Shown here one piece after another: positions 36,439 to 62,857 of a stretch of 64,000 nt of DNA. The notes under the pieces are model-generated. The model saw only the letters and a program-made list of their open reading frames with translations, had not been told where the DNA came from and searched no databases. This DNA is from a virus. Taxonomy: Duplodnaviria; Heunggongvirae; Uroviricota; Caudoviricetes. The stretch covers positions 46,179 through 110,178 of the IMG/VR virus record IMGVR_UViG_3300035492_000044; one strand, given 5' to 3'. Every line of letters starts with the position of its first letter. Position 1 is the first letter of the stretch. Made by a program: the position numbers and the translations under genes.

Positions 36439-36443
36439 ATTTC

Positions 36444-36520
36444 GCGTCCATAGCTCATCTGGATAGAGCAGGGGATTTCTAATCCCCTGGTGGTAGGTTC
36501 GAGTCCTACTGGACGCGCCA
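36444..36520 (+). tRNA. tRNA-Arg (anticodon TCT)
   Basis: Acceptor GCGTCCA/TGGACGC, anticodon loop TTTCTAA in stem GGGGA/TCCCC, GGTTCGAGTCC T-arm, CCA. Confidence 0.8.
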
Positions 36521-36969: not shown

Positions 36970-37046
36970 GCGGAATTAGCTCAGTTGGATAGAGCATCTG
37001 CCTTCCAAGCAGAGGGTCACGAGTTCGAGTCTCGTATTCCGCTCCA
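36970..37046 (+). tRNA. tRNA-Gly (anticodon TCC)
   Basis: Acceptor GCGGAAT/ATTCCGC, loop CTTCCAA, U73, CCA. Confidence 0.8.
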
Positions 37047-37050
37047 TTAT

Positions 37051-37127
37051 TGGGGTATAGCACAGTTGGTAGTTGCGTCTGACTGTTAATCAGAATGTCG
37101 TAGGTTCGAGCCCTACTACCCCAGCCA
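37051..37127 (+). tRNA. tRNA-Asn (anticodon GTT)
   Basis: Acceptor TGGGGTA/TACCCCA, loop CTGTTAA, GGTTCGAGCCC T-arm, CCA. Confidence 0.7.
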
Positions 37128-37371
37128 AATTTGGTGTTACTCCCGATCGAAAGATACTGAAACATGAAATCGTCTCCGCACGATGTAGGCCTTACGAGGT
37201 CATGATCAGCCAAGAGATGACAGGTCCGAGTAGATTAGTAGCACCGTCTTAATCACGCAGAGGCGGACTGCATCGAGAGCCATTAGAAAAGTGTAACTCC
37301 ACGAGAACCTCAGACTCTGGACTACATGACCGGCACTAGCTTCACTCGATCTAATAATTAAACGCAACCAT

Positions 37372-37456
37372 GCGGATGTGGTGAAATTGGTAGACACACC
37401 TGGTTTAGGTCCAGACGCCTACGGGCGTGAGAGTTCGAATCTCTCCATCCGCACCA
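37372..37456 (+). tRNA. tRNA-Leu (anticodon TAG), type II
   Basis: Acceptor GCGGATG/CATCCGC, long variable arm, loop TTTAGGT, CCA. Confidence 0.65.
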
Positions 37457-37711
37457 TATTCGAGACCCCACTAGTCAGCCGAAGTACTGGTGGAGATTAG
37501 TGTCATGAGCTAGTCTGCCCAGGTCTCGAATCAAAACAGGAGAGTCCTTAGATGGTGCTATCTAGCCAGTTGCATTCGTAGTCTACCCGTCGGCTACATT
37601 GAATGCCTAAGTGACTCTCCGCCTATTATGGGGTATGCCTCGTCTAAAGCATTGGGATCTGTGATGATACCAGGGTGGGTAACTACGTAGTCCCACATAC
37701 TCCACCAGTTT

Positions 37712-37787
37712 GCCGGTATAGCTCAGCTGGTAGAGCAGCTGACTTGTAATCAGCAGGTCGTGAGTTCGAATCCCACTGCCGGCACCA
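37712..37787 (+). tRNA. tRNA-Thr (anticodon TGT)
   Basis: Acceptor GCCGGTA/TGCCGGC, stem GCTGA/TCAGC with loop CTTGTAA, CCA. Confidence 0.8.
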
Positions 37788-37799
37788 TATTGTGGTTAC

Positions 37800-37916
37800 T
37801 GGTTCCTATCATTATGTGGTTGGAAGCAAAAAGTCTAGTAATCACAACCTAATTGCTGTAATCCCTCTTGAAGTGAAACATGATGGACGGGAGTTCGACT
37901 CTCCCCAGCTCCACCA
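37800..37916 (+). ncRNA. ssrA: tmRNA acceptor piece (3' half of a permuted ssrA): T-arm + 3' acceptor strand + CCA
   Basis: 'GGACGGGAGTTCGACTCTCCCCAGCTCCACCA' ends 37916 and closely matches the E. coli tmRNA 3' end '..GGGTTCAACTCCC.CCAGCTCCACCA'. No matching 5' acceptor strand upstream. Left boundary is approximate. Confidence 0.65.
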
Positions 37917-37986
37917 TAGTTACCCTGGTAGTGACAGCCTTTGAGTGCGGTCTTAATCTACCATGGCTATCAGAGTAACTATGATG

Positions 37987-38240
37987 GGGCTGATCTGGAT
38001 TCGACATTGTGCGTAGTGAATAGAGGCAGCACAGGTAGATGACTGCCTGAAGTTGAGCCACCTTGCGGAAGGTCTGGGCTCAGCTGAAATAGCATAAATC
38101 AAGTAACTGCCAACGATGAATCGTTCGCACCTCTGGCTCTGGTTGCTTAAGTAACCTGATGCTGGTCGGGTATCTTCGGATCGCTCTCCTGCTATAGCTA
38201 ATACCTATAGTTGCCTCGGAACAGAAAGAGAGCACCTATT
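37987..38240 (+). ncRNA. ssrA: tmRNA coding piece (5' acceptor strand GGGGCTGATCTGGATTCGAC..., tag ORF ANDESFAPLALVA-stop)
   Basis: 'GGGGCTGATCTGGATTCGAC' at 37987 matches the tmRNA 5' end 'GGGGCUGAUUCUGGAUUCGAC'. Tag frame 'GCC AAC GAT GAA TCG TTC GCA CCT CTG GCT CTG GTT GCT TAA' at 38109-38150. Lies downstream of the CCA end, so the gene is circularly permuted. 3' boundary approximate. Confidence 0.7.
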
Positions 38241-38257
38241 TCATTAGTGAGGACTAA

Positions 38258-38467
38258 ATGGAACATCACATCCTTAATCTCACTGCCCAGAAGGGTCGCC
38301 TGTATTACTACCAGGGTAATTTCTACCATCCGCTTGATCTGGTAGGTAACTCGGTAGGTCTAGTGAAGAGAGGAATTCGAGAGTTCCTCGCTAAGAATAA
38401 AGATATGGTAGCTCGTGACAGAGCTAGCCCAGACTACAAGACTCTGGTTGAATTATCAGGTCTTTAA
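38258..38467 (+). CDS. hypothetical small protein
   Basis: ORF within the tRNA island. Confidence 0.3.
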   Translation: MEHHILNLTAQKGRLYYYQGNFYHPLDLVGNSVGLVKRGIREFLAKNKDMVARDRASPDYKTLVELSGL

Positions 38468-38570
38468 CTAATCCTGTCGTTGGGACTACCCAGTAGCCAT
38501 GAACTTCTGGGCGTCAGTAGAAGATACTGGACCAGTACGAAACCTGGTAATAATTAATTAGGAGAGCAGC

Positions 38571-38774
38571 ATGATGCTATCTGAGTTGGGTCAACGTATC
38601 TTGGCCCACTATGTTGAAAGACGTAGCGGTAAGTCGGGTAACTACATCCCTACTGACTGTGATCGTAAAGCAGCTCAACTAGCTGCTGAGAATACCACGG
38701 ATCATCTACGTGGAGCTACTGTTATGGCTCGGATGTATGATGACAAGCTTGCTGGTAAGGCTCCTATTAAGTAG
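38571..38774 (+). CDS. hypothetical small protein
   Basis: ORF with RBS 'ggagag'. Confidence 0.3.
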   Translation: MMLSELGQRILAHYVERRSGKSGNYIPTDCDRKAAQLAAENTTDHLRGATVMARMYDDKLAGKAPIK

Positions 38775-38917
38775 GAGCCGACTCGTACTTTCTGATGAGT
38801 AGCCCGAGTATAAAAGGCACGAAACTGTAATAGTCAAAGAGCCACTGATGGTGGCCAGTTAGTAACTCACACTGTAGCTAACTGAATTACGTTTGCAGAG
38901 GACCGTCAATCTGAAGC

Positions 38918-39625
38918 ATGAAGTGTACGCCTATGGTACTGACACTACCTTGGAAGTTGTACTGTGCTGGCGCTATACCAGCACTTAATACAGTGCAGCC
39001 TACAATCTATTCTTGCCTCGAACTGGATGAGTCCACAGAGGATGCGCACTTGAGTAGATTGTGGGAAGTACTGGAGATAATCATGACCAGAGAAGATTTA
39101 ATAAATCTATCCAAGATACCTCCTTCAAATATATCAGTAGCAAAGTCTCTTGAAGCTAGAGGTTATCCATATTATGGTAACCTAAAATCTTCATATCCGA
39201 TTCATTGGGCCAGCTTCTCTGCTATGCACGGAAGAGTTAGAGATTTTGGCCTTGATTGTGATTTTCCTAGAAATGTGGATGGATTTATTGATTTTATCCT
39301 TTATGTCGGACCTGTTCCTGGAGATATGATTAGGCCAACTCTTGGTAGATCAGATCATTCAATTGGGTACTTAAAGGGTAATTTTAAGTGGCAGGAGTCC
39401 AGTGATAATACATCGGAGTCTGCTACAAGAAACAAGACTGTAGTCAAGATTCAAGAGTGTCGTTTAAATAGGTTGGAAGACCTAGTAAGTAGTCTAGGGG
39501 ATAAAGTTGAAATAGACTCCTTATTTACGACCTCTCACTTTAGATATAAGAAGGATTTGTACAGGCTACTTAGAAGTAGGGGATATAAAATATCTTCTGA
39601 CTATAAAGTAGCTAGTAAAGTTTAA
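38918..39625 (+). CDS. HNH homing endonuclease (paralog 1)
   Basis: 'LGRSDHSIGYLKGNFKWQ' resembles the HNH 'RIDNxxGYxxxNxRW' motif; AT-rich codon usage differs from the neighbours; embedded between tRNAs. Confidence 0.5.
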   Translation: MKCTPMVLTLPWKLYCAGAIPALNTVQPTIYSCLELDESTEDAHLSRLWEVLEIIMTREDLINLSKIPPSNISVAKSLEARGYPYYGNLKSSYPIHWASFSAMHGRVRDFGLDCDFPRNVDGFIDFILYVGPVPGDMIRPTLGRSDHSIGYLKGNFKWQESSDNTSESATRNKTVVKIQECRLNRLEDLVSSLGDKVEIDSLFTTSHFRYKKDLYRLLRSRGYKISSDYKVASKV

Positions 39626-39626
39626 T

Positions 39627-39716
39627 GGAGAGTTGGCCGAGTGGTTTAAGGCACCTGACTTGAAATCAGACGGATCAGCAATGGTCCCCAGGGTTCGAAT
39701 CCCTGGCTCTCCACCA
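39627..39716 (+). tRNA. tRNA-Ser (anticodon TGA), type II
   Basis: Acceptor GGAGAG../..CTCTCC, long variable arm, loop CTTGAAA, GGTTCGAATCC T-arm, CCA. Confidence 0.7.
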
Positions 39717-40045
39717 TATTGACCTAAGAAGATTACACTCATCATGGGTGGGATTAGCCTCTTATCTTCTTGGTCAATATTCTCTGTTACTCACAAGTAC
39801 CTTAACTAACAACTGCACAGACGTTAGCCAACCAGATGTGAGTAATCGAGGTTCCACTCTCATTCCGAGAGTGTTGATAAGGGGGTGATCCTTATCTCCG
39901 GCTGCAGCTACGGATACTGCAGAAAGGCTAGTTAATGTCGTGAGACATCGACAGGCCTACCGTTGTACCAGAGGCGAATAGGGTAGCTCCCGTTCCAGCA
40001 CTGCTTTGCTGGATAGCCTCTTCTTATACCTAAGCAGAGGTTAGT

Positions 40046-40585
40046 ATGAACATACCTGAAATAAAATATGATACCGAGTACCTAATAAAAATAGCTTTCC
40101 ATAATTTTGATTTATGGAGCCATCACGAGCAAATGGCCGTTAAGTCTATGGAAGCTAGAGGTATTCCATGTTATGGTTTATTACCTAAAATGTTTCCGAT
40201 TCATCGGAACCGTTTTAGAAATATGCATAATAGAATAGACGAACAGTGTTTAGAGACTTCGTTTAAAAGAGATTTAGAAGGTTTTGCTAAATTTGTGGAA
40301 TATCTTGGACCAGTTCCTACTGAAATGAAAGTCCCGTCTTTAGGAAGAATCGATCATTCTAAAGGTTATGTAATAGGCAACTTTACATGGCAGGAACTTA
40401 GAGATAATATAGAAGAAATGGCCAATAGAACCAAGTCTTCAGATAATAAGTTCTGGGTAAACAGCCCAGGATGCACAGGTTATAGATGGTATAACGACGG
40501 ACAGACTGAATTCTTTCTGAGAGAAAATAATCCTTTAATTGAAGACGCTGGTCTAGTTAGAGGTCGGTTTTCTAATCGACGTTAA
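40046..40585 (+). CDS. HNH homing endonuclease (paralog 2)
   Basis: 'SLGRIDHSKGYVIGNFTWQ' HNH motif; clear paralogy to 38918-39625 ('EARGIPCYG', 'LGPVPTEMKVPSLGR'). Confidence 0.55.
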   Translation: MNIPEIKYDTEYLIKIAFHNFDLWSHHEQMAVKSMEARGIPCYGLLPKMFPIHRNRFRNMHNRIDEQCLETSFKRDLEGFAKFVEYLGPVPTEMKVPSLGRIDHSKGYVIGNFTWQELRDNIEEMANRTKSSDNKFWVNSPGCTGYRWYNDGQTEFFLRENNPLIEDAGLVRGRFSNRR

Positions 40586-40638
40586 TCCATCAGAAGCCAC
40601 TAATGCTGTGGAAAACTCTGCAAAAATTTAGGTGACTT

Positions 40639-40932
40639 ATGAATAAGGTAGTTAGATTCCTTAATGCCATTCGTAGGTCACACCCAGATATGGTCGAGTT
40701 GTATACTCAGGGCCAATGCTACAACTTCCATCTTATCCTCCGAGAGGTCTTCCCAGATGCTGTTGCCTGGTATGACCCAGTTGAGGGCCATGTGTACTCC
40801 AAGATTGGAGACTGCTGGTACGATATAAGAGGAAGACATTTCAAACTGGATCCACGAGCTAGTATTCTGGATCATCGTATGTCCGACAAACCTCATCGCT
40901 GGGGTGGACGTGATAGAAGAAGACTAAGGTGA
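40639..40932 (+). CDS. hypothetical protein
   Basis: ORF. Confidence 0.4.
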   Translation: MNKVVRFLNAIRRSHPDMVELYTQGQCYNFHLILREVFPDAVAWYDPVEGHVYSKIGDCWYDIRGRHFKLDPRASILDHRMSDKPHRWGGRDRRRLR

Positions 40933-40935
40933 GTT

Positions 40936-41502
40936 ATGGCTCGTAAATCATTCAAGGACATGACCCAGTTTCAAGTAGGCCAGCACTTCTGTGAATGTGA
41001 TCTAGGCCAGGTACTCGAGTTCGCTATCACTACCGAACCTGTAGTTAAGGACGTGGATGGTCGACGCCAGATTACCTGGACAGGTCGTGACGTGAAGACT
41101 CAGCGGGATATTGAGTATCTCGTTACTGAGGGCTTCGAACATTATGGCCCTAAGATCTACGACCCAGCTGACATGTTCAGCCCAGAGGATGTAGCTCTTG
41201 CTCTCCGACAGTTGCGCCAGTCTCCTAATGTCCTTCAGAAGGTCGAGGTAGATCCTGGTGCACCTGGTGGTGATGAGACGGTAGTTAGCTGTATAGTTCC
41301 TATTAATGGAAAAGATCATCACCTAGTCCTACCGGTTACATTGCATTATCGTGGTATCTGCAGACTGGCTGGATATAATGACGACAGACTGTACACCATT
41401 ACCTACGTCTCTCAGCAAGGTAGTGGTATAGTCGGGCCTAATGACTCTCTCCAGATTACAGCTGGTACAAAGATAAATGTGGCATTGACCAACAATGCAT
41501 AA
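40936..41502 (+). CDS. hypothetical protein
   Basis: ORF. Confidence 0.4.
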   Translation: MARKSFKDMTQFQVGQHFCECDLGQVLEFAITTEPVVKDVDGRRQITWTGRDVKTQRDIEYLVTEGFEHYGPKIYDPADMFSPEDVALALRQLRQSPNVLQKVEVDPGAPGGDETVVSCIVPINGKDHHLVLPVTLHYRGICRLAGYNDDRLYTITYVSQQGSGIVGPNDSLQITAGTKINVALTNNA

Positions 41503-41546
41503 CGACTTCCAGATAGTCCGAAACCCTGTTAGGGTGGAAGTCGGAA

Positions 41547-41888
41547 ATGGAGAGAGTTATGCTTGGTAAACCCATGAAGTCGATTAAGGTTCAATATGAG
41601 CCTGGCTGGAATGGTGGAACTTGGTCTGTAGTCAGTCGGAAGATTGATGCAGTATCTAAAGTCCACGATCTTCCTATGGATGTCAAGGTCAAGATACGGG
41701 GTATCCTAATCGACGCCTGTAAATCTACTCGAAAGGGTACTGACTATGACATGGGCCATCAGTACGACTGGGAATCCTGGGACCTGACTCTTAAGGTCAA
41801 GACTGAACTGGGTGTAATGGAGTTCAGTTTCTATGAGTATGCCCAGAAGCATCCTCGAGTCAAGACCTGGGAGATCTTCTACGAATAA
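41547..41888 (+). CDS. hypothetical protein
   Basis: ORF after class-B motif 41503. Confidence 0.4.
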   Translation: MERVMLGKPMKSIKVQYEPGWNGGTWSVVSRKIDAVSKVHDLPMDVKVKIRGILIDACKSTRKGTDYDMGHQYDWESWDLTLKVKTELGVMEFSFYEYAQKHPRVKTWEIFYE

Positions 41889-41966
41889 GGGCCTCTAGCA
41901 TAACTGGTAAATGCGTCCGGCTCATAACCGGAGGACAGATCGGTTCGAATCCGACGGGGCCCACCA
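41889..41966 (+). tRNA. tRNA-Met/Ile2 (anticodon CAT)
   Basis: Acceptor GGGCCTC/GGGGCCC, stem TCCGG/CCGGA with loop CTCATAA, GGTTCGAATCC T-arm, CCA. G1-C72 pair means it is not an initiator. Confidence 0.75.
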
Positions 41967-42688: not shown

Positions 42689-42880
42689 ATGAACGGTGAG
42701 ACTCTGGTACAGAAGTACCGTAAAGCTATCGCCAGTTATTATGCAGAGGTTGAGAAGGTAGACCGGTGCCGTCGTCTCAACCTCCGTCATAAGGACAAGC
42801 GTGACCTTATTAAGGTCAAGGTAGCTAAACTCAAGAAGCAACTGGATCAACAAGCTAAGGGTGTGGTAATCAAACCATGA
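42689..42880 (+). CDS. small basic protein
   Basis: ORF translationally coupled to the dUTPase gene. Confidence 0.35.
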   Translation: MNGETLVQKYRKAIASYYAEVEKVDRCRRLNLRHKDKRDLIKVKVAKLKKQLDQQAKGVVIKP

Positions 42881-43581
42881 ATGAAGCACAACTACGTACA
42901 ATGCTAGGTCTGCAATATGACCTGAACAAGGCCATCTTCCCAGACTTCCTGGAACGTAAGCTACCGTACTATCGAGCTACCTGGATCGAAGCAGGTGAGC
43001 TGATGGACCACGTAGGTTACAAGTGGTGGAAGAAGCGTAATGATGACCTGAGTCAGGCTCGCCTGGAACTGGTTGACATGTGGCACTTCATCCTCAGTGA
43101 ACTGATGGTCGGTGCTTATGTACTGATCAAGACCACTGATCGTGACCGCATCATCGAGACTGCTATCGATATGGTGCTCGATGACGTTACCTCTGAGATG
43201 GGTGTCATTGAGGGTGTCGATGTACTCGACCTGATCGAGCAGTTCACCTGTAATCTCCTCCAGACTCGTCTTGGTCAGGGAGCTAACTTCTGCAGTGACA
43301 TCAGTATGTTCCGTCAACTGTGCCTGACTCTGGGCCTGACTGATGAGCAGCTGTTCCTGCAGTATATCGGCAAGAATACCCTGAATCACTTCCGTCAGCA
43401 ACATGGGTACAAAGAAGGTACCTATCGGAAGAATACCTGGGGTATGTCGTCCAATCAGGAAGACAATGAATTCCTGACCGACGTCCTGAATGCATATCAG
43501 GAACAGCTGCTGAGCTCCAATCCGGAAGAGGTCTCGGAGAAGGTATATGACCTGCTCCGGATCAACTATCCGAAGATGTAA
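42877..43581 (+). CDS. All-alpha (dimeric-type) dUTPase/dCTPase, T4 gp56-like NTP pyrophosphatase
   Basis: 'YYRATWIEAGELMDHVGYKWWKK' and 'ARLELVDMWHFILS' are hallmark motifs of dimeric dUTPase/dCTPase. Confidence 0.7.
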   Translation: MNEAQLRTMLGLQYDLNKAIFPDFLERKLPYYRATWIEAGELMDHVGYKWWKKRNDDLSQARLELVDMWHFILSELMVGAYVLIKTTDRDRIIETAIDMVLDDVTSEMGVIEGVDVLDLIEQFTCNLLQTRLGQGANFCSDISMFRQLCLTLGLTDEQLFLQYIGKNTLNHFRQQHGYKEGTYRKNTWGMSSNQEDNEFLTDVLNAYQEQLLSSNPEEVSEKVYDLLRINYPKM

Positions 43582-43590
43582 GTGAAGATA

Positions 43591-43626
43591 GGGTAGATTC
43601 CTCACGGGGTCTACCCTATTTATTTA
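43591..43626 (+). terminator. rho-independent terminator (GGGTAGA..TCTACCC + TATTTATTT)
   Basis: Hairpin + T-run after the dUTPase gene, immediately before class-B motif 43638. Confidence 0.65.
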
Positions 43627-43697
43627 CCTATTTATTCCGACGTTTATGTGCTTCGAAACCCTGTTAGGGTGTAGGTTGTTCAACGTGAGGTATAACC

Positions 43698-44438
43698 ATG
43701 TCAAGTAAGAAACACTCAGTAGTGTTTACTGGACCTCAGGGATCTGGTAAGACTACTCTCGCACAAGCCTGGAGTCAGCACTACGATGTACCGTATGCTG
43801 GTATTGAGACTCGCAAGTTCCTACCACCAGGTATCAAGAGCCATCTGGACGTACTGAGTCTCGCAGTAAACGAGCCTGACTCTGGTATCTCATTCCAGGA
43901 GAATCTCATCCGCAAGAGAGCCGAACTATTCAAGGATCTCCGGGATACTAAGAAAGTGTATACTAGTGATCGAGCTGTCATTGATAGCTTCGTCTACTAC
44001 GCTATGCACAACTCGATGTTCTCCTCTGCTGAGAAGAGTAAGGAACTCGAAGAGATCACTCGTGAGGCTCTGTGCTACCCAGATATCACGATCATGCTCT
44101 ACCCATCGTCCATCCAGATCGCTGATGACGGTGTTCGTATTCACAGTAGCCCATACTACTCTGCATTCGGCGCTACTATGAACTACGTAATGAATGCCAT
44201 GCTGCGAGAGAAGACATCTCCTGATCTTCCTCCTGTCCAGATTACTATCAGTGACAAGCTGACTGTTCAAGTGGCAGTAACGACAGAAGGTAGTCTGGTA
44301 GCATTCTTCCTGGAGAATAATGGATTCTCTAGCATGGAAGATCGTATTGCTGGAGTCGAGTGGCTTACTCACTTCAAGAGTAATCCGAAGGCTACCTATG
44401 GTAACCACTATCCTGTCAATGTTCAGACTGTTCACTGA
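43698..44438 (+). CDS. Deoxynucleoside/deoxynucleotide kinase-like P-loop kinase
   Basis: Walker A 'FTGPQGSGKTTLA' and dNK-type 'TSDRAVIDSFVYY' (ERS-like) motif. Confidence 0.6.
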   Translation: MSSKKHSVVFTGPQGSGKTTLAQAWSQHYDVPYAGIETRKFLPPGIKSHLDVLSLAVNEPDSGISFQENLIRKRAELFKDLRDTKKVYTSDRAVIDSFVYYAMHNSMFSSAEKSKELEEITREALCYPDITIMLYPSSIQIADDGVRIHSSPYYSAFGATMNYVMNAMLREKTSPDLPPVQITISDKLTVQVAVTTEGSLVAFFLENNGFSSMEDRIAGVEWLTHFKSNPKATYGNHYPVNVQTVH

Positions 44439-44449
44439 GAGTTCATCCC

Positions 44450-45514
44450 ATGCACGTAGTAAAGGCACGTGGCATTAATGATGCCGTCAAGCAACTGATC
44501 CATGATGTTCACCATTTCGGTACTGAGACTAAGTCCGATAAGGGGACAGTGAAGGAAATCAATCGTCTACTACTGGAGATCGAGCGGCCTGTCAATCGAT
44601 ATCTGTGCATCCCTGGACGTAAGAACAACATCTACGCCATGATCGCCGAGACCATGTGGGTACTGTCAGGCACCAATCTGATTGAACCATTGCTGTCGGC
44701 AGTTCTCCCAAGAGCTAAGGACTTTAGTGATGATGGAGTTTCCTGGAGAGCTGGCTACGGTCCTCGACTCTATAAGGATGGGCAGCTCGATACTGCTATT
44801 AATCGTCTTAGGAAGTCACCTGCTACTCGCCAGTCTGTTATCTCGATTTACGATCCTGCTCTTGATACCGATAGTGCAATTCACGCGCAGCTTGGTGTAT
44901 CTGCTAGTAAGGATGTACCTTGCAACAATATGCTGTATCTCTATACTGACCCTGATAATCGCAATAGACTCAATCTGAGTGTGATTCAGCGCAGTGGTGA
45001 TGCACTATGGGGCTTTGGTAGCATCAATATCTTCGAGTGGTCGTTCCTCCAGGAAGTGGTGGCATCTGTTCTGGGTATGGATGTGGGTACTTACGCCCAC
45101 TACTGCAACAATACCCATATCTACTACGACAAGCCGGTAGTGCTCCGCCAAGTCCAGGATATCGTCGCCAATACTGATGCCGTATCGCCGAATATGGCTA
45201 CTGGAATGCAGATGGACATTGGTGTCATTCACAGTGCTCACGATATCCGCATGTTCTTCAATCTGGTATGCCAGGTTATGGGACGAGTGGCTATCAAAGA
45301 GCTCGACCGTGAAGCAGGCATGTCTGCTATTCGTAATGTCTTCGAGACTTACCGAGTAGCTCGCACTACTAACAAGCTGTGGCACTACTGCGAACTGGTA
45401 GTAGCTCAGTTGACTCCGGAAGAAGAGGAACAGATCGATCTCTCTGGGTATTCTCAGGACTTGATCAATGCTGTATGCTGCAGCACGTTCACTAAGTTCA
45501 AGTACATTATTTAA
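44450..45514 (+). CDS. Thymidylate synthase family enzyme (ThyA or dUMP hydroxymethylase) with ~80 aa C-terminal extension
   Basis: Catalytic Cys 'DVPCNNMLYLY' (vs 'APCHAFFQFYV'), 'IQRSGDALWGFGSINIFEWSF' (vs '[20 protein letters not shown]'). Asn at the pyrimidine-discriminating position suggests a uracil substrate. Confidence 0.85.
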   Translation: MHVVKARGINDAVKQLIHDVHHFGTETKSDKGTVKEINRLLLEIERPVNRYLCIPGRKNNIYAMIAETMWVLSGTNLIEPLLSAVLPRAKDFSDDGVSWRAGYGPRLYKDGQLDTAINRLRKSPATRQSVISIYDPALDTDSAIHAQLGVSASKDVPCNNMLYLYTDPDNRNRLNLSVIQRSGDALWGFGSINIFEWSFLQEVVASVLGMDVGTYAHYCNNTHIYYDKPVVLRQVQDIVANTDAVSPNMATGMQMDIGVIHSAHDIRMFFNLVCQVMGRVAIKELDREAGMSAIRNVFETYRVARTTNKLWHYCELVVAQLTPEEEEQIDLSGYSQDLINAVCCSTFTKFKYII

Positions 45515-45526
45515 GGTAGGTTCGTT

Positions 45527-46192
45527 ATGAGCATTGCTCAGTTAGTTACTTTCATGAAGGAAGTTGATGGTCTCCGATTCACTGGTCGCTGGAATGGCCA
45601 CTTTATGTTCGATCGGAGTAATGTTGCTGAGCACAGCTTCCGGGTAGCATGGTGGGCTAGTCTCATCACCGACACGTACACCACTACCGATCGTGGTGAT
45701 AATACTCCTCTCTGCACAGTGAACGAGCATGAGCTCTACTCCTGTGTCCAGCGTACCATCCTGTCTCACGACATGGCTGAGAAGTACACTGGTGATGTTC
45801 GTCATGACATCAAGCGTGAGTACCCCACTCTGAAGGCAGTGCTGGATGATGTGGAAGAGGATCTCCTCAATCGTGTCATGCCATTCCGGAATAAGGTCAC
45901 TTATAGTGACGAAGTCCGTAAGATCACCAAGGCTATCTACAAGGGAGCTGACATTCTCGACTTCACTCTGGAGGCATTGAAAGAGATGAAGCGTGGTAAT
46001 GAGATCGTCGACTTCCCAGTAGCAGTAGTCCGTGGTCTGGTTCATATCCAGAGCCTTCCAGTCGAGGATGTTTCCTACATCTGCGAGGCTATGTTCTCCT
46101 ACATGCTGAACTCGTACGGTTATGAGTACAATAAACTCCGTGACCAGTACGCCAGTCAAGCTCAGTTCCACACTGATGGCGTTAGTGCCTAA
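45527..46192 (+). CDS. HD-domain phosphohydrolase (YfbR-like 5'-deoxynucleotidase)
   Basis: 'VAEHSFRVA' (H) and 'ILSHDMAE' (HD) motifs. Confidence 0.65.
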   Translation: MSIAQLVTFMKEVDGLRFTGRWNGHFMFDRSNVAEHSFRVAWWASLITDTYTTTDRGDNTPLCTVNEHELYSCVQRTILSHDMAEKYTGDVRHDIKREYPTLKAVLDDVEEDLLNRVMPFRNKVTYSDEVRKITKAIYKGADILDFTLEALKEMKRGNEIVDFPVAVVRGLVHIQSLPVEDVSYICEAMFSYMLNSYGYEYNKLRDQYASQAQFHTDGVSA

Positions 46193-46207
46193 TAAGTTGA
46201 GGTAGGT

Positions 46208-47182
46208 ATGAAGATCGACCTTGCTCGTATGATCAAACAGCCTACTTCAATGTTAGTGAATACTTCCACATTATCGAAGAAGGTGTTTGAGTTCGATCCT
46301 GCTGAACATGAGGTTCATGGCCACAGTAAGAATCACGAGCACTACATCTGTCCGTTGTGTAAGGAAGAACATGGAGATGACTACGCTAAGGTCAAGCTCT
46401 ATTGGAACTACGAGAAGCTAATTGGGTTCTGCTTCATATGTGAACATGTGGCAATCCTCAAGACTGATCGTCCACGCTACGAGGTGGCTCTGACAGTAAT
46501 TCTAAATAGGTTGCTGTCAGACCTCTCTCATAATCCCGAGATTATGGAGCGTGAGCTTAGGAGCTTCAGTGAAATCAATTATTCTGGGATAGCTAAAGCA
46601 CCTACTGATGTAGCGGTCGAGTACTTAGCTCATCGTGTACCTATCTACCCAGACTTACTTGATGTCTTCAGATTCGGAGAGGTGCCGAAGACAGGAGTAA
46701 CTGTACCTGTCTTCATTAATGGCAAGATAGTGTCGTACATCCTCCGGTTCTACAAGCCGCCAGGTAAGATGAAGTACTACCTGCCTGAGAACTCCAAGGT
46801 ATTGTATTCGCCTACTGGGGATCTCTGGATAGGTAAGCATGTCGAAGAGATTACTCTAGTTGAGGGTCCATTCGATGCGATAGCTGCGGCTATTGATGGC
46901 TTCCCTAATCCTATGGCAGTATTTGGCAAGACTATTACTCCATTCCAGACCTATCTGCTTCGCAGTATGGCCCCAGATAAGATTAACTTCTATCTGGACG
47001 AGACTGAGTTATCTCAGAAGATGAGGATGGAAGTACGTGGCCAGTTGCCGACTGTTAGTAGTACTCGTGTAATTAGATCTCCTGGAGACGATCCTGAGGA
47101 GAGGCTATTGTGGAAATTAATGAACTACGGAGACGACTATCTTCAAAAGTTAAGTGAGAATATTCAGAGACTAAAAGGGTAA
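46208..47182 (+). CDS. DNA primase (N-terminal zinc ribbon + TOPRIM)
   Basis: 'CPLCKEEHGDD..CFICEH' Zn ribbon; TOPRIM 'ITLVEGPFDAIAAAIDG'. Confidence 0.6.
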   Translation: MKIDLARMIKQPTSMLVNTSTLSKKVFEFDPAEHEVHGHSKNHEHYICPLCKEEHGDDYAKVKLYWNYEKLIGFCFICEHVAILKTDRPRYEVALTVILNRLLSDLSHNPEIMERELRSFSEINYSGIAKAPTDVAVEYLAHRVPIYPDLLDVFRFGEVPKTGVTVPVFINGKIVSYILRFYKPPGKMKYYLPENSKVLYSPTGDLWIGKHVEEITLVEGPFDAIAAAIDGFPNPMAVFGKTITPFQTYLLRSMAPDKINFYLDETELSQKMRMEVRGQLPTVSSTRVIRSPGDDPEERLLWKLMNYGDDYLQKLSENIQRLKG

Positions 47183-47186
47183 TCTG

Positions 47187-47903
47187 ATGAGTAAGATACT
47201 TGAGATAGCTCTTAAGTCAAAGATATGCAGACCATCGAAGAAGGTGGTGGATGACTACAAGCCATGGGGCATCTCCATCACCCAAACGATGAATTGCATG
47301 AGGTTCAACTGGATTAACTACAATCGACCTAAGGAGATTGATGGGTACGAATTCGTCTACATGAAGGATGACCCTTACAACTACTCTGGTTCGCTGATTG
47401 TAGGTATGGGGTACTGTGTTGAGAATATTGTGGCAGAGTTCCTCAAGGAGTCTGGCATCTTCATCTCCACTCAGGATAAGGTCCGGGACCTAGGTAACAA
47501 GTGGAGAGGTAACCTCGACTACCTAGTCAATCTCAAGCCATGGGGTTATGGTATTGGTGACTGTAAGGGTATGTCAGAGAGGAAGTTCCAGGGATTCCTG
47601 GAGAGACCACTCAAAGAGGTTATGTTCGACTACTACGTCCAGTTGACCTCTTACATCCACATCATGGATGTACCGTACGGATTCATCGTTGGAGTAAACC
47701 GAAGTAATGGCAAGGTAGAAGTACGTGTCATTACTAAGGAAGAGACCAAGGATGACTTCCTGTTCTATCGTGGTCGAGTCAAGCAGACCCTAGATGCTCA
47801 GAGTGTGTACGATCTCCCTATCGAGGAAGATAAGTGCCATGGGTGCAGTAATGTACCTTTCTGTCATCGAGGTAAGCCTGAATTGATTGCGACGTTCACG
47901 TAA
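47187..47903 (+). CDS. Cas4/RecB-like PD-(D/E)xK nuclease with Cys cluster
   Basis: 'LDYLVN..IGDCKG' (D..DxK) and 'YYVQLTSY' (QxxxY). One N-terminal Cys plus C-terminal 'CHGCSNVPFCH' (Fe-S-like). Confidence 0.5.
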   Translation: MSKILEIALKSKICRPSKKVVDDYKPWGISITQTMNCMRFNWINYNRPKEIDGYEFVYMKDDPYNYSGSLIVGMGYCVENIVAEFLKESGIFISTQDKVRDLGNKWRGNLDYLVNLKPWGYGIGDCKGMSERKFQGFLERPLKEVMFDYYVQLTSYIHIMDVPYGFIVGVNRSNGKVEVRVITKEETKDDFLFYRGRVKQTLDAQSVYDLPIEEDKCHGCSNVPFCHRGKPELIATFT

Positions 47904-47950
47904 CTCGAGAACCTGTTAGGGTGTTGGAAGACACCCTACTGGAGGTATGT

Positions 47951-48199
47951 ATGAGTGACAACGAAACATCTGGTGCATGTATCGGAACATTCGATCGACG
48001 AGTGTCCTTTGATGTAACCAGTCAGCGACATGGTAACCACAGCTTCTGTATCGATCTGGACGACCTCTCGGCAGCTAAGTTCGAGGATGACCCCATGACC
48101 ATTATCGTGAAGCATCGTGGTACTACGGAGAAGACCAATATCCTCTTCGAAGATAAGGCTCAGTACGAGTCTGCTAAGGCTCTCCTCACCGGCAAGTAA
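47951..48199 (+). CDS. hypothetical protein
   Basis: ORF; start after RBS 'ggagg', downstream of class-B motif 47890. Confidence 0.4.
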   Translation: MSDNETSGACIGTFDRRVSFDVTSQRHGNHSFCIDLDDLSAAKFEDDPMTIIVKHRGTTEKTNILFEDKAQYESAKALLTGK

Positions 48200-48210
48200 T
48201 AGGTACCGTT

Positions 48211-49830
48211 ATGTCAGATGTTGAACGTCTGTTAGATTCTGTAGTGGCGGATGTATTTCCGTCATTCCAGTGGCGTCCTAACCAGAAAGAAGCAGTGATG
48301 GAAGTGCTCACTGCCTTTCTGGTGGATAACTACACCAAGGTAGTCCTGGATGCACCTACTGGTGCTGGTAAGTCATGGATTGCACGGATCATCGCTGAGT
48401 GTCTGAATCGGGTAGTGGGTCAGGTAGCATCTACTCTGTTCCTCACCAAGACCATCAGTCTCCAGAATCAGTATCTTCGTGACTTCCCTAGCATGAAGAA
48501 GTTGATGGGAGCTAGTAACTACAGCTGCCATACTGATAATCCGCCGGCAATTCTCCCAGCACATAAACACCATACGTCGTGTAAGTATTCCACTTCTGAT
48601 GGTCAGTGTGAGTACAATATCGCCCGTAGTGAGTACAAGGCTGCTCCTCTCAAGACCCTGAACTATGCATTCTATTTTACTGGGTATCCTCGCTATGCAG
48701 GCGTTGATACTCTTATTGTGGATGAGTGCCACAATCTACCAGATTTCCTCATTGATTATACGAAGGTCGAGTTCAACCTTAATCGTATTAATGAGATGAC
48801 TCCTGAAGTCACCATGACGGATTACTTCAATCCGATCGAACTGAATAAGCGTGGTCTTCAGTTCAGTGACCTACCGGAGATCTATGAGTTCATTCGTGAT
48901 ACTCAATCCGCAGTTCAAATGGCATTCAATGAACTGATGGACTCCATTGAGAATATGCCTGAAGATAGTAAGCTGGCTAAGCTACTGTCCGATAAGCTGA
49001 TTCCTCTAGAGAAGGATGTTAAGTATCTTCAGGGTCTAGGTGGCAAGCTACTGAATATGGCTAGCCAGGACAAGAGTAATCTGGTGATCGATAGTGACGA
49101 GAATGAGAGCCTGAAGTTCTCCATTACTCCTATCTTCATTCCGGATTATGCCATGGAGATTCTGGATAAGAGCACATTCACTCTGCTTATGTCCGCTACT
49201 CCATTCCTGATGGTACGTGAACTGGATCGCTGCAAGGTACGCTACAAGCGTGTCATCATGCCGTACTCCTACCCAGTTGAGCATCGTCCGTTCATCATCC
49301 AAGGTGAGATGCCGAAGATCAACCACAGTACTCGTCAGCAAGTAATTCAAGAGTACGTTGAGCAAGTAGACAAGATTCTGGACCAGGCTACTGAGTCCGG
49401 ACTTATTCACTCCTCATCGTACAGCTATGCTGAAGATGTACTTAAGTACTCTCGTCATCGTAACCGTCTGTATATCCCACGTGGTGAAGAGCTACGTAAC
49501 ATCAAGTCCGTAGTCCGTCCAGGTCGAGTACTGGTGAGTCCATCTCTCATTGAAGGTGTTGACTTCGCTGGTGATATGGCTGAGTTCCAGATTATTCTCA
49601 AGGTACCGTATCCGGCACTGGGTGATAACTGGATCAAGACTAAGATGGATGTGGATGAAGGGTGGTATGATGCAGTCACCATCACCAATATCATTCAGGC
49701 CTCTGGTCGACCTATCCGTAGTGCTGAGGATGTGGCAGTAACTATCTGTCTGGACCCATCCTTCAAGTGGCTACTCAATCGAGTTAGAAATGACGTACCG
49801 TCCTGGTTCATGGACTCCGTCAGTCAATAG
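48211..49830 (+). CDS. SF2 DNA helicase, DinG/Rad3 (XPD)-like
   Basis: Q-motif, Walker A 'DAPTGAGKSW', 'LIVDECHNL' DEAH box, motif VI 'QASGRPIRS'. Confidence 0.75.
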   Translation: MSDVERLLDSVVADVFPSFQWRPNQKEAVMEVLTAFLVDNYTKVVLDAPTGAGKSWIARIIAECLNRVVGQVASTLFLTKTISLQNQYLRDFPSMKKLMGASNYSCHTDNPPAILPAHKHHTSCKYSTSDGQCEYNIARSEYKAAPLKTLNYAFYFTGYPRYAGVDTLIVDECHNLPDFLIDYTKVEFNLNRINEMTPEVTMTDYFNPIELNKRGLQFSDLPEIYEFIRDTQSAVQMAFNELMDSIENMPEDSKLAKLLSDKLIPLEKDVKYLQGLGGKLLNMASQDKSNLVIDSDENESLKFSITPIFIPDYAMEILDKSTFTLLMSATPFLMVRELDRCKVRYKRVIMPYSYPVEHRPFIIQGEMPKINHSTRQQVIQEYVEQVDKILDQATESGLIHSSSYSYAEDVLKYSRHRNRLYIPRGEELRNIKSVVRPGRVLVSPSLIEGVDFAGDMAEFQIILKVPYPALGDNWIKTKMDVDEGWYDAVTITNIIQASGRPIRSAEDVAVTICLDPSFKWLLNRVRNDVPSWFMDSVSQ

Positions 49831-49842
49831 GAAGTACCCTTT

Positions 49843-50385
49843 ATGTCTATGTTGAGCTACCGTCGTATTATGGAACTGGTTGAGGCTGGTTCTATCCTGG
49901 TCGATAAGAAGTATGTTCAGAGTGCTAGTGTGGATGTTCACTTGAGTGAGAACCTCAAGCTGGAGAGTCCATTCGCTGCACTACTGGACCCCATGAATCC
50001 ATCGAATACTCCCCATCTGCGTGATATCAAGATCCACAAGAGTGGGTACATGCTACGTCCTCGCCAGATCTTCCTAGGTGTTACTGTGGAGCGATTCAAT
50101 CTCCCCAATAACATCGTAGGTGAGTTCACCATGAAGTCATCGATCGCTCGTTGCTTCCTGAATCACCTGCACAGTGATCACATGGATCCAGGCTTCAATG
50201 GTCACTTGACTCTGGAGATGGTGAACATGAATGAACAGCATTCTATTCGCCTGAGTGCAGGTATGCCTATTGGCCAGATCAAGTTCTACGAAGTAGAGCC
50301 GGTACCTGACCACATCCTGTACTCCAATGTGGGCCAGTACAACAATCAGTCTGAGATGCCTGTAGCTAGTAAGGGCGCTCGATAG
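49843..50385 (+). CDS. dcd: dCTP deaminase (Dcd/dUTPase trimeric superfamily)
   Basis: 'SSIARCFLNHLHSDHMDPGFNGHLTLEMVN' and 'AGMPIGQIKF' match Dcd signature regions. Confidence 0.75.
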   Translation: MSMLSYRRIMELVEAGSILVDKKYVQSASVDVHLSENLKLESPFAALLDPMNPSNTPHLRDIKIHKSGYMLRPRQIFLGVTVERFNLPNNIVGEFTMKSSIARCFLNHLHSDHMDPGFNGHLTLEMVNMNEQHSIRLSAGMPIGQIKFYEVEPVPDHILYSNVGQYNNQSEMPVASKGAR

Positions 50386-52525: not shown

Positions 52526-55500
52526 ATGAAGTTAATCACTGAACCATCGAAGAGTAAGTATGCTGTCGTAGGTATCGGTCTGGGGCAGAGTGAGGGTGCA
52601 TTCTCCACTGATGCTGGCGACATGATGCGAGCTATCTTCCTCTCCCAGACCGTCTTCCCGCACTATGTAGAACTCCGTAAGGATAACTTCGATGACGAAG
52701 AAATTCCTGATGAGCTAAAGTCTGCTGTTTATTCGTATCTGGCAGACAACGGTATCGAGAAAGTCATCCTACTGGGTTCTCAGACTGCACGGCAGCTAGC
52801 ACCTAGTCTTACTGCCAAGTCCACTATCGCTAAGCTCAACAGTATGCCATTCCTAGGCGTACAAGAGTTTACTGCACAGGCAGCAGTGATCCACCATCCT
52901 CGATTCGTAGTGCATGCACTGAAGAATAACCCTGACTCCGAGATCGAGTATTCCAATCGTATTCAAGGTCTACTGAAGCACACACCTCAAGCCTACAATA
53001 TCCACATCAATAGTATCTCGATCGATGGACTGATATCGGATATCCTACCATGGCTACTCAATAACTATCGAGGCAAGATAGGGGTAGACTTCGAGACTAA
53101 TGGAGAGGAGATCTGGCATAAGGACTTCAAGATCACCCTATTCAGTCTATCGATGAAGGATGACGATGGATCCCACATTACATGGTGGATACCTGTAACG
53201 GGTAATGAGACCGAATGGGAATTAGAACAGCTGCGCTCATTCTTTTTGGGAACTAAGGATAGGCTGTGGGCATTCAACTGTCCATTCGAGATGAAGGTAT
53301 TCTGGCGATGGCTAGGAGTATTTATCGGGATCAACGACTCGATGGTACTGATCACGATGGAGTCCTCGCGTAGTAGCTTGAAGGACGCAGTACGTCGTCA
53401 CCTAGCATCAGACTTCTGGGAAGCTGAAGTACACGAGCAGCTGAACGCATTCTCAGCTACCTTTAAGCAGATGACCAAGATGATTAAGGGTCAACCTGAA
53501 CTCATCGAGACTCTTCGTAATGGTGGATATCCTGCCATGGAAGAGATTCAGCACAACGAGAGTCTGCAATTCATCCGTGAAAACCACGAGGATATTCTCG
53601 AGGATTACGGTATTGAAGAACTAGCACGATGCATTACTGGATACCCGTATCACTGGGCGGCAGTTCCCCACGAGATTCTGGGACCATACTGCTGTCGTGA
53701 CTCGGCGTACGGTGTAATCCTAGCTGAGAAGTTCGAAGACAAGTTCCGTGATGGATATCCGGTGTATATCCGCCATCCATGGCTTGCAACAGTGTTCGAA
53801 TCGTATGGAATCACCTACGATCGTGATGTTTCCTATGAGGAACAGAACAAATTCACTCAAGAAATGATCGCGTCGCTGAACCTAATCATCCAAGACTTGG
53901 ACATTCCGATTGAGTCAAAGATGAAGGCTAACGACATCCTGTCATGGAACCTTCCGCATACGATCGTGTCATATACCGAGAAGACCAAGAAGGAGAAGCG
54001 TAGGGTCATTAAGGATGAAGGTGATCGTCACGAAGAACTGAAGGGTATCTTCAATCCTGCGAGTAACCATAGTACTACTCGGGATATGTTCTGGAACCAC
54101 TATCTTGATGAAAGTATCGAGATGGCAACTATTCTGTGGGCATTCGTAACCGAATTGCGTAATCGGGATATCTGGCCTGAAGTATTGAAGAACTTGAGTA
54201 CCTTCAGTACCGAGGAAGAGTTCCTTAGGTCCAAGCCTGCTGATGAAATGATGGATTCCCTTATTGGGCTAATGCAGCAGCATCAGGGCAAAATATTCGG
54301 TATCGATATTCAGAACTGTCTGGTCGAGGCTACGAACAACTACAAGGAGCTTTATACTGGTCGATTTGCACGTGATGTAATGGAAGCTCAGTACAAGGTC
54401 CACACTTACTTCTTCGGCGTCAATGTCGACGATAAGTCAACGTGGAATCCTAAGTTCGAGCTACTGTTCAACCTGCATAAGTGGAAGAAGCTAGCTAAGA
54501 CGGTAAGTACTTACATCACGGGTTCTATCGGCCGTGACTCAGTCTACCTGTCTAAGTACGATCCCAAGGACATTACTAAACCGCCAATTCGGATAGCTAA
54601 GGCTGACCTCCTGCCTCTGGATTACCAATTGAAGGAGGATGAGTGCTGGGTATTCAACGTAGGGTTCAACTCTCTATCGGCGATTACTCATCGTTGGTCA
54701 TCGGGAGCACATACGATCCCTTCGGGATCATCAGTAAGACGCATGCTCATTCCGCGTAATCCTGACGGTGTGTGGTTCCATGCTGACTTCAGTCAGGCTG
54801 AACTAGTTATCCTATCGTTCTTCAGTCAAGACCCGAAGATGCTTCAGGTATTCTTGTCTGGTGGTGACATGCACCGTTATGTTGCTAGCCAGGTATTCAA
54901 GAAGCCCGAAGATGAGGTTACTAGTGAGGAGCGACGTGGAGCTAAGGCAGTATCGTTCGGTATTATTTACGGTAAGTCCATTGAATCTACTGCGGTAGAG
55001 ATCTTCGGTGGTGACGTAGGTCGTACTCAAGCGATGTTCGATGCATTCTTCCTCCAGTTCCCTGGTATTAAGGTCTGGATGGAGGAGCGTTACAAGGAGG
55101 TCGATACTCACGGTAAGGTAACCAACATGTTTGGTGCACTTATCCAGGTTGAGACTGACGCGCCAGGTAACGCTAAGTACCGTCAAGGCTGCAACTATCC
55201 GATTCAGTCATCAAGTAGCATGCTTGCTGGTACTTCCATGTGGAACTTGCATGAGCACTGCCAGACGATTGATCTGACTCAGCTGTCTCACAACTTCACC
55301 CATGACGCCCTCGATTCTGAGTGCGAAGTAAGAAGGATATTCGACTACACCAAAGCTCTGCGATTCAAGATGCAGGACGAGTTGTATGAGCAGCTTGGTG
55401 CACCTATGCGTATTGACCACGAGGTAGGTATTAACTGCTTCCACATCTGCGGTATTGGAGATATCGAGGAGACCCCTGACGGGATCAAATTCGAGCTTGA

Positions 55501-62846: not shown

Positions 62847-62857
62847 TGCTAAATTAA

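Follow-up and report, generated by a model that had tools for sequence, protein, structure and literature searches.

A putative precursor operon for 5-hydroxymethyldeoxyuridine triphosphate in a divergent member of the RP13/SP15-like phages

Phages that carry bases derived from 5-hydroxymethyldeoxyuridine (hmdU) in place of thymidine resist many restriction enzymes, and their DNA is hard to sequence and to amplify. For the RP13/SP15-like group, published work has noted a ThyA homolog, a dUTPase and a deaminase acting on dCTP or dCMP, and has proposed that thymidine is hypermodified (10.1101/2025.03.26.645540; PMC12686479). Three phages of this group, RP13, YerA41 and Carin-5, resisted standard sequencing. 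Here we analyze a 64,000-nucleotide stretch (hereafter the window), positions 46,179-110,178 of the IMG/VR record IMGVR_UViG_3300035492_000044 (Caudoviricetes), together with flanks of 5.5 kb upstream and 0.8 kb downstream from the 110,178-bp source contig. It covers the part of a large, uncultured phage genome devoted to replication and nucleotides, with genes for SbcCD, topoisomerase II, ribonucleotide reductase, a split RNA polymerase beta' and the DNA polymerases PolA and PolX. The interval 42877-50385 (window coordinates) encodes five nucleotide enzymes centered on an extended ThyA-family protein. We read this interval as the pre-replicative half of a thymidine-replacement pathway that would make 5-hmdUTP, and put the probability of this reading at roughly 75%. 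The original prediction, drawn from the DNA letters without database searches, had proposed that the set may produce 5-hmdU (or dTTP in bulk) for a modified genome, and every computational test that we applied agrees with its central point, that the ThyA homolog acts on dUMP and makes 5-hmdUMP. The logic of such a pathway is textbook and will not surprise a specialist, and the group-level inference of thymidine hypermodification is already in the literature.

By the similarity of its proteins, the phage is a distant, divergent new member of the RP13/SP15-like group, whose family A polymerase is fused to a uracil-DNA glycosylase (UDG) domain (Ralstonia phage RP13, Acinetobacter phage Ab1-TPeters and E. 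coli phages EP_H11 and IME392; more distantly YerA41, SP-15 and Carin-5), with a PolA that is 34-39% identical to those of the group over its full length (Ab1-TPeters 39%, RP13 36% and EP_H11 34% are the best phage matches). Among solved chains, the closest to it are 9qhs (1142 aa, 9e-51) and 9qli/9qlh (1306 aa), which we take to be SP15/YerA41-like polymerases. This polymerase subfamily has been described, and its characterized members from YerA41 and phiLo excise dU (10.1101/2025.03.26.645540). In the window enzyme, a domain of ~150 residues (52526-53000) precedes the exonuclease at the position of the UDG domain of YerA41-type polymerases; in an alignment of this N-terminal region from four related phages the domain as such is conserved but no family-4 UDG motif clearly is, and we make no claim of UDG activity. 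Downstream of PolA comes a PolX gene (62818-63738), as reported for the group.

The window and the RP13/SP15-like phages share the syntenic order SbcCD, topoisomerase II and modification island, and both encode PolX, the aGPT-Pplase clade 1 protein HMUDK_hel, a dUTPase and a ThyA homolog. The run of kinase, ThyA-like, HD, primase, nuclease, helicase and PolA genes is likewise syntenic with Ab1-TPeters and EP_H11, and the trio of kinase, ThyA-like and HD genes recurs in a metagenome contig (L010) and, again as three neighbors but with the HD gene first, then the kinase and the ThyA-like gene, in a second locus (L054). Protein identities to the group nevertheless reach at most ~46%, and megablast matched the 7.5-kb interval to none of 50,697 phage records. 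The deaminase also varies, as the window, EP_H11 and IME392 use a dCTP deaminase (Dcd) while RP13 uses a dCMP deaminase, and HMUDK_hel adjoins the kinase gene in EP_H11 but not in the window. The window differs further in the sugar enzymes of its island (DegT, two epimerase/dehydratases, a nucleotidyltransferase-cupin protein and a methyltransferase) and in additionally encoding a split RNA polymerase beta' and a transfer-messenger RNA (tmRNA).

Phages of the M6/ViI-like type possess an extended ThyA-like dUMP hydroxymethylase of ~350 aa that is 28-42% identical to the window enzyme over ~245-270 residues (PMC5889632, PMC8989533). In M6 an HD gene follows the ThyA-like gene and in ViI-like phages a dUTPase_2 gene lies nearby, both of which recall the window, and an HMUDK_hel homolog is present, as in the window, in M6, in Aeromonas phage TSW001 and, by tblastn, in many ViI-like phages. 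The kinase that acts on 5-hmdU in DNA (5-HMUDK, PF18748), AADT, pyridoxal-phosphate decarboxylase and radical-SAM partner of these phages are not seen in the window, which has sugar enzymes where M6/ViI-like phages have amino-acid tailoring enzymes and an AAA_28/dNK-like kinase where the ViI-like type is DNMK-like. Bacillus phage SPO1 shares the logic of making dUMP, hydroxymethylating it, phosphorylating the product and excluding dTTP. SPO1-group enzymology includes a dTTPase/dUTPase and the dTMP nucleotidase of SP5C-type phages. SPO1 DNA contains plain hmdU, HMUDK_hel was not seen in the SPO1 stretch examined, and SPO1 differs from the window in its route through dCMP rather than dCTP deaminase and in its kinase family.

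The original prediction had likened the set to that of the T-even phages, routed through uracil. The enzyme architecture bears this out, with an all-alpha NTP pyrophosphatase (the gp56 dCTPase/dUTPase in T4), a thymidylate synthase-family hydroxymethylase in which an Asp stands three positions ahead of the Cys, a kinase and a glycosyltransferase-like enzyme acting on DNA (beta-glucosyltransferase in T4), but the likeness fails for the kinase, which is not homologous to T4 gp1/DNMK and belongs to a separate AAA_28/dNK-like family. The base differs as well, being cytosine in T-even phages (Asp in gp42) and, by our reading, uracil here (Asn193). T4 gp42 has 246 aa, lacks the extension of the window enzyme and shows no significant BLASTP similarity to it (E 2.6).

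Nine co-directional open reading frames (ORFs) make up the interval (Table 1), and the five nucleotide ORFs among them match their families well above chance; the five genes named at the outset are thus real, with strand, coordinates and families all confirmed. They had been described as a pyrimidine remodelling module, and while the five enzymes stand, a purely nucleotide module does not, since the HD gene and dcd are separated by four replication genes, making the interval a nucleotide-plus-replication block. A promoter and terminator scan of 41.5-52.6 kb found no operon boundaries, and sigma-70-like promoter matches in the same region numbered 7 against 17 +/- 4 expected. RNA polymerase beta' is encoded in two genes (Rpb1 domains 1-2 and 3-5, 58240-61299), and this split beta' and the deficit of sigma-70-like sites suggest transcription by a phage-encoded polymerase.

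Table 1. Genes of the interval 42877-50385 and related features of the window.
Feature	Position	Strand	Match or remark
Putative modification island	9173-17362	+	between topoisomerase II and HMUDK_hel
aGPT-Pplase clade 1 / HMUDK_hel protein	17452-18456	+	PF18723, 6e-57
Dimeric all-alpha dUTPase	42877-43581	+	PF08761 dUTPase_2
dNK/NadR-like P-loop kinase, 246 aa	43698-44438	+	AAA_28, 3e-10
ThyA-family enzyme, 354 aa	44450-45514	+	PF00303, 7.9e-18; phrog_3676, 7.6e-90
YfbR-like HD phosphohydrolase	45527-46192	+	PF12917
Primase-like gene	46208-47182	+	
Cas4-like nuclease	47187-47903	+	
92-aa ORF	between HD gene and dcd	+	
DinG/Rad3-like helicase	48211-49830	+	
dCTP deaminase (Dcd)	49843-50385	+	PF22769, TIGR02274
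Family A DNA polymerase (PolA), SP15/YerA41-like subfamily	52526-55702	+	PF00476, 4.3e-44

The diagnostic positions of the ThyA-family enzyme were read from an alignment with E. coli ThyA, T4 gp42, SPO1 gp29, M6 gp58 and others, and its family was aligned as 52 full-length metagenomic homologs. The elements of the thymidylate synthase fold are present, namely the catalytic Cys, which had been predicted to be kept (C158, aligned to E. coli C146), and a Glu, a Tyr, an Arg-Ser and a His-x-Tyr (E67, Y103, R181/S182 and H223/Y225, aligned to E58, Y94, R166/S167 and H207/Y209), and the top fold matches all have this fold. Asn at the pyrimidine-specificity position, also predicted, is N193, which corresponds to E. 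coli N177, where Asn denotes uracil and Asp denotes cytosine (PMC13326640, PMC6400193); T4 gp42 and MilA, the CMP hydroxymethylase of mildiomycin biosynthesis, have Asp there. Three residues before the cysteine, in the motif KDVPC, D155 takes the place of E. coli L143, a position at which methylating enzymes have a water-excluding Leu and hydroxymethylases have an Asp or Glu that activates the water used as substrate (PMC6400193; PMC13326640). D184 aligns with E. coli D169, whose replacement by Asn is the mark of flavin-dependent 5-hydroxy-dCMP synthases (PMC13326640). C158, N193, D155 and D184 are invariant in all 52 homologs, and the combination of N193, D155 and D184 therefore reads as dUMP and hydroxymethylation, not 5-hydroxylation. 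The D-x-x-C motif is common to SPO1 gp29, M6 gp58, ViI-like phages, RP13, Ab1-TPeters, EP_H11, TSW001 and T4 gp42, while E. coli ThyA has L-A-P-C at this site. Two further E. coli residues are replaced, W80 by A89 and H147 by N159.

The remainder of the protein also departs from thymidylate synthases. It misses the cut-offs of all seven NCBIfam ThyA equivalog models (among them 62.4 against 174.55 for TIGR03283, 53.5 against 327, 50.6 against 327 and 40.3 against 108.35), and its best PDB sequence match is MilA at 1.3e-17, compared with 1.5e-8 for the best true thymidylate synthase. Its AlphaFold2 model, at a predicted local distance difference test (pLDDT) score of 93.6, matches MilA with template-modeling scores of 0.72-0.74 over 358-363 columns and thymidylate synthases at ~0.5 over ~240. 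The original prediction had counted about 80 extra C-terminal residues and thought that they would also fit a dUMP hydroxymethylase. We count ~75 (354 aa compared with 264 aa in E. coli ThyA; 129 compared with 55 residues after H-x-Y), predicted to fold with pLDDT mostly above 90 and conserved throughout the 52-sequence alignment. They belong to a C-terminal helical subdomain of ~130 residues that superposes on MilA and replaces the lid that seals the folate site of thymidylate synthases; the extra residues would thus be the helical subdomain of a known hydroxymethylase and not a loose tail. MilA (PDB 5b6d, 5jnh) shares this subdomain and the Asp at the L143 position with the window enzyme but differs in its Asp at the N177 position (cytosine), in its ribonucleotide substrate and in overall sequence (~20-22% identity).

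By tblastn, the closest phage relatives are TSW001 (37% over the full length) and Ackermannviridae (~42-48% over the core), followed by M6/YuA, SPO1 gp29 and SP-10, phages for which the presence of hmdU, or of bases derived from it, is established (PMC5889632, PMC8989533). An alignment to SPO1 gp29, one of the checks proposed with the original prediction, gives 33% identity over 208 residues, with the D-x-x-C, the Asn and the C-terminal extension shared. With its diagnostic residues (D155, N193 and D184), the failed ThyA cut-offs, the match to MilA and the phage relatives all in agreement, we regard the ThyA homolog as very probably hydroxymethylating dUMP and so making 5-hmdUMP, not dTMP, as had been suspected.

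The enzymes around it fit a supply of dUMP and an exclusion of thymidine. The dUTPase matches PF08761 at 5.5e-25 (89 bits against a gathering threshold of 22.9) and, among solved structures, is closest to the dimeric dUTPase of Campylobacter jejuni (1w2y, 1.7e-20); it does not reach the NCBIfam equivalog NF049964 (102 against 300). Homologs of it occur in YerA41 and Carin-5, both listed as T-hypermodified. An enzyme of the same fold from Acinetobacter phage SH-Ab 15599 hydrolyzes dUTP and dTTP and is inactive on 5hmdUTP (PMC13458397), and by analogy a dual role for the window dUTPase, supplying dUMP and removing dTTP while sparing hmdUTP, is plausible. Dcd matches PF22769 (1.4e-28) and phrog_1663 (2.6e-45) and passes the TIGR02274 equivalog (101.8 bits against 92.8).

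The HD enzyme matches PF12917 at 1e-17 (64.9 bits against 25.9) and, in the PDB, Lin2634 (3mzo, 4.5e-5) and YfbR (2paq, 0.0027), with the H..HD metal motif ('EHS', 'HD') aligned, and falls below its NCBIfam equivalog (33 against 122). An HD gene directly follows the ThyA-like gene in M6 (gp59), Ab1-TPeters, EP_H11 and L010, and one lies within ~3 kb of it, on either side, in three further loci (L023, L054 and L057). Bacillus phages with hmU DNA encode a dTMP nucleotidase, and DatZ of Z-genome phages offers an analogue for an enzyme with this role. By such analogies, and by that with YfbR, removal of dTMP or dTTP is the most likely role of the HD enzyme, which would keep thymidine out of the DNA. 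The roles proposed for the three accessory enzymes, Dcd, dUTPase and HD phosphohydrolase, are consistent with the classical hmdU pathway and with the dTTPase/dUTPase of SH-Ab 15599.

We accordingly picture a route of six steps, for which we infer all substrates and products, the dTTPase and dTMPase roles and the whole of the post-replicative step that would follow. Dcd would convert dCTP to dUTP, and the dimeric dUTPase would cleave dUTP to dUMP and pyrophosphate, probably also destroying dTTP. The extended ThyA-family enzyme would then turn dUMP, methylenetetrahydrofolate and water into 5-hmdUMP and tetrahydrofolate: the folate methylene would be transferred to C5, and a water activated by Asp155 would attack the exocyclic methylene, replacing the hydride transfer. 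The dNK/AAA_28-like kinase would phosphorylate 5-hmdUMP to 5-hmdUDP, with host NDP kinase completing 5-hmdUTP, while the HD phosphohydrolase would drain dTMP or dTTP so that thymidine is excluded, and the SP15-like family A polymerase would build the hmdU-containing DNA. After replication, genes at 9.2-18.9 kb (HMUDK_hel, a beta-glucosyltransferase-like protein, nucleotide-sugar enzymes and a methyltransferase) would probably convert hmdU to a bulkier, possibly glycosylated base.

The predicted structure of the kinase (pLDDT 94) has the dNK/TMPK/NadR-RNK P-loop kinase fold, with the NadR ribosylnicotinamide kinase domain, deoxynucleoside kinases and thymidylate kinases as nearest folds. The family comprises about 216 cluster representatives, and of 72 relatives all match AAA_28 and 34 match dNK. 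A PDB profile search with the kinase gave generic P-loop matches only, the T4 gp1-type DNMK family (PF21448) did not match it, and an IMG/VR pattern search built on a five-sequence kinase alignment gave 122 pattern matches with no true relative among them; the alignment of 72 sequences offered no conserved stretch on which such a pattern could be built. The order in ViI-like phages and TSW001 is 5-HMUDK, ThyA-like, DNMK-like kinase and dUTPase_2; the kinases beside the ThyA-like gene there have weak phosphomevalonate-kinase matches, with a weak DNMK match in TSW001 only.

We ran local hidden Markov models on 48 IMG/VR loci, fetched with the ThyA-like alignment, and on reference loci. The window-type AAA_28-like kinase was present in 6 independent loci and the DNMK-like kinase in 11, with no co-occurrence in any locus surveyed, while PF18748 5-HMUDK was found in 6 loci, 5 of which also have the DNMK-like kinase; the samples behind these counts are small and phylogenetically related. 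This mutual exclusion suggests that the window kinase substitutes for the dNMP kinase, and we therefore assign it the phosphorylation of hmdUMP, for which it is most likely the kinase.

Of the alternatives, the one that survives best, though we think it unlikely, keeps the hmdU pathway and makes the window kinase the missing 5-hmdU DNA kinase of RP13-like phages, which would phosphorylate the 5-hydroxymethyl group in DNA, perhaps with HMUDK_hel, and leave hmdUMP to the host thymidylate kinase Tmk. Gene order lends it some force, as the slot directly upstream of ThyA-like, or one close to it, is taken by PF18748 5-HMUDK in M6, ViI-like phages and TSW001, and the kinase is neighbored by HMUDK_hel in EP_H11 (HMUDK_hel, kinase, ThyA-like, HD) and close to it in L054 (HD, kinase, ThyA-like, HMUDK_hel). 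A search of RP13 is also reported to have detected no 5-HMUDK (preprint 10.1101/2025.03.26.645540), and phage-encoded hmdUMP kinases may be dispensable, as no phage dNMP kinase was found in the 12.7 kb around the M6 ThyA-like gene. The window kinase is nonetheless not a 5-HMUDK of the PF18748 family: PF18748, which recognizes M6 gp54, Maynard_145 and the TSW001 homolog at 7.7e-18 to 1.6e-116, does not match it and is not among the 25 commonest families of its 72 relatives, and profile-profile alignment (hhalign) with 5-HMUDKs is limited to the P-loop region (56 columns, probability 78%). PF18748 kinases, moreover, occur with DNMK-like kinases and the window kinase never does, as expected of a replacement for the dNMP kinase rather than for a DNA kinase, and the window kinase sits inside the precursor operon, 25 kb from HMUDK_hel.

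Far less probable is a reading of the ThyA homolog as a divergent but otherwise ordinary thymidylate synthase, in a module that boosts dTTP for rapid replication. The genes td, dcd and dut do serve dTTP supply in many large phages, Dcd with a dUTPase is the standard dUMP route for dTMP synthesis, the protein matches PF00303 and most database records of its relatives say 'thymidylate synthase', and the catalytic Cys, Glu, Tyr, Arg, Asp and Asn of that enzyme are all present. We reject an ordinary ThyA on the change of Leu143 to an invariant Asp, the equivalog scores, all of them far under the cut-offs, and the MilA-like helical subdomain in place of the C-terminal lid; the change of Trp80 to Ala, nearest relatives in phages with known hmdU-derived bases and the accompanying HD nucleotidase and HMUDK_hel genes point the same way.

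A different outcome at C5, either 5-hydroxylation by a flavin-dependent enzyme of the RB69/DLP3 5hodCMP synthase type or uracil-DNA of the PBS2 type, is scarcely credible, even though the thymidylate synthase-fold hydroxylases 9iqu and 9iqc are among the fold matches and the PBS2 enzyme set of dCTP deaminase, nucleotidase and nucleotide kinase resembles this one. Both forms are rejected: the D169N change of the 5-hydroxylases is absent and D184 is invariant (PMC13326640), those enzymes (RB69 gp48 among them) use dCMP and have Asp at the N177 position, where the window enzyme retains N193, a dUTPase is incompatible with uracil-DNA, and polymerases of the same subfamily (YerA41, phiLo) excise dU, although UDG motifs were not confirmed in the N-terminal domain of the window PolA.

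If 5-hmdUTP is the product of the interval, the remainder of the window suggests what may become of hmdU in the DNA. The HMUDK_hel protein matches PF18723 with 193.6 bits (gathering threshold 25) over profile positions 3-276 of 281, as M6 gp55 does at 8e-56; aGPT-Pplase clade 1 is a former name of this family. Its best phage relative is that of RP13 (41%), with the EP_H11 protein at 33%. It is a full-length HMUDK_hel without a PF18748 kinase domain, and a DUF4326 gene (18431-18862) directly follows its gene. HMUDK_hel homologs lie within 10 kb of the ThyA-like gene in ~32 of the 48 IMG/VR loci, mostly without a PF18748 kinase, and the HMUDK_hel gene would mark post-replicative processing of 5-hmdU. 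The island upstream of it encodes, by Pfam, a DegT aminotransferase, two NAD epimerase/dehydratases, a nucleotidyltransferase-cupin protein and an S-adenosylmethionine-dependent methyltransferase, as well as proteins of 498, 380 and 292 aa without a family match.

The 498-aa protein resembles Maribacter phage genes annotated 'beta glucosyl transferase' (2e-11) and matches Ab1-TPeters CDS0012 (9e-32), which lies in the same place after topoisomerase II and precedes two glycosyltransferases. The window island is syntenic with this Ab1-TPeters glycosyltransferase island. Sequence motifs would make the 380-aa and 292-aa proteins glycosyltransferases too. NCBIfam and PHROGs gave no match for the 380-aa, 292-aa, 498-aa and 385-aa proteins, PDB sequence searches with the 498-aa, 380-aa and HMUDK_hel proteins returned nothing useful, and no further modification genes were found in the 5.5 kb upstream and 0.8 kb downstream of the window. 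We infer that the island makes a sugar-type group and transfers it onto hmdU in DNA. Because the HMUDK_hel gene lies in a sugar and glycosyltransferase island, hmdU is probably an intermediate and not the final base. The thymidines of SP-15 and YerA41 are glycosylated, and a sugar-type elaboration here would be in line with them.

Several observations weigh against the proposed pathway. The ThyA homolog, like SPO1 gp29, lacks the Ser that pairs in T4 dCMP hydroxymethylase with the catalytic Tyr (A101-G102-Y103 in the window enzyme); its equivalent of E. coli R21 is replaced (D30/K31) and that of R127 is Gln. No dUMP hydroxymethylase structure was among the PDB matches, and the signature residues derive from dCMP/CMP hydroxymethylases and from the SPO1 gp29 alignment. 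The predicted kinase fold is equally close to nucleoside kinases, which phosphorylate a hydroxyl, and to NMP kinases. Neither PF18748 5-HMUDK nor AADT (aGPT-Pplase clade 2, PF18724) turned up in a scan of most window ORFs of at least ~100 aa and of the 5.5 kb upstream, a search that leaves ~46 kb of the 110-kb contig outside view, and the known post-replicative chemistry is thus incompletely represented. The sugar island could, finally, serve host-surface or virion glycosylation instead.

Some surveyed loci show unusual arrangements of the ThyA-like and HMUDK_hel genes. Across the loci L024-L052 (e.g. L024, 9746-11614), many ThyA-like genes lie in stop-to-stop frames of 480-690 codons that carry an unrelated C-terminal extension of ~250 aa, with HMUDK_hel immediately upstream, and in L055 (9986-12055) the ThyA-like ORF is broken by an insertion of ~320 aa, possibly an intein or homing element. 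In Bacillus phage Goe26 (Spounavirinae; L060, 4059-5969), a 636-aa protein encoded just upstream of the ThyA-like gene matches HMUDK_hel in its C-terminal part and may be a fused kinase and helical domain.

Elsewhere in the window, eight tRNA genes cluster at 36060-41966, and within this cluster lies a permuted two-piece tmRNA (37807-38241; RF04321, 104 bits; beta_tmRNA, 86.6 bits) with the tag ANDESFAPLALVA. An Acb1-like anti-CBASS protein is encoded at 27055-27588 (PF23474, 3.3e-12) and an HNH endonuclease at 57025-57486, between the PolA and RNA polymerase genes. Two weak restriction-endonuclease-like ORFs and a 442-aa SPFH/Band 7 protein are found among 38918-40585 and 34557-35885.

In the RP13/SP15-like phages, where bulky thymidine modifications are suspected, the window adds a divergent member with a compact, well-defined precursor operon, in which family membership, diagnostic residues, fold and conserved gene neighborhoods are demonstrated, with a kinase family that is a constant companion of the group's hydroxymethylase, and with a distinct sugar-enzyme island beside the clade 1 aGPT-Pplase gene. 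A bolder proposal, which we consider rather doubtful, is that the kinases of this family, encoded beside the hydroxymethylase here and in RP13, Ab1-TPeters and EP_H11, represent a second, so far unrecognized kind of 5-hmdU DNA kinase partnering HMUDK_hel, and that the 9.2-18.9 kb island then adds a new amino-sugar or methylated sugar to thymidine; if true, the modified base would be chemically distinct from the amino-acid- and polyamine-derived bases characterized so far. The operon, the kinase family and the island are candidates for pathway reconstitution and for the discovery of new DNA modifications, and their value would rise with the substrate of the kinase family and the chemistry of the sugar island.

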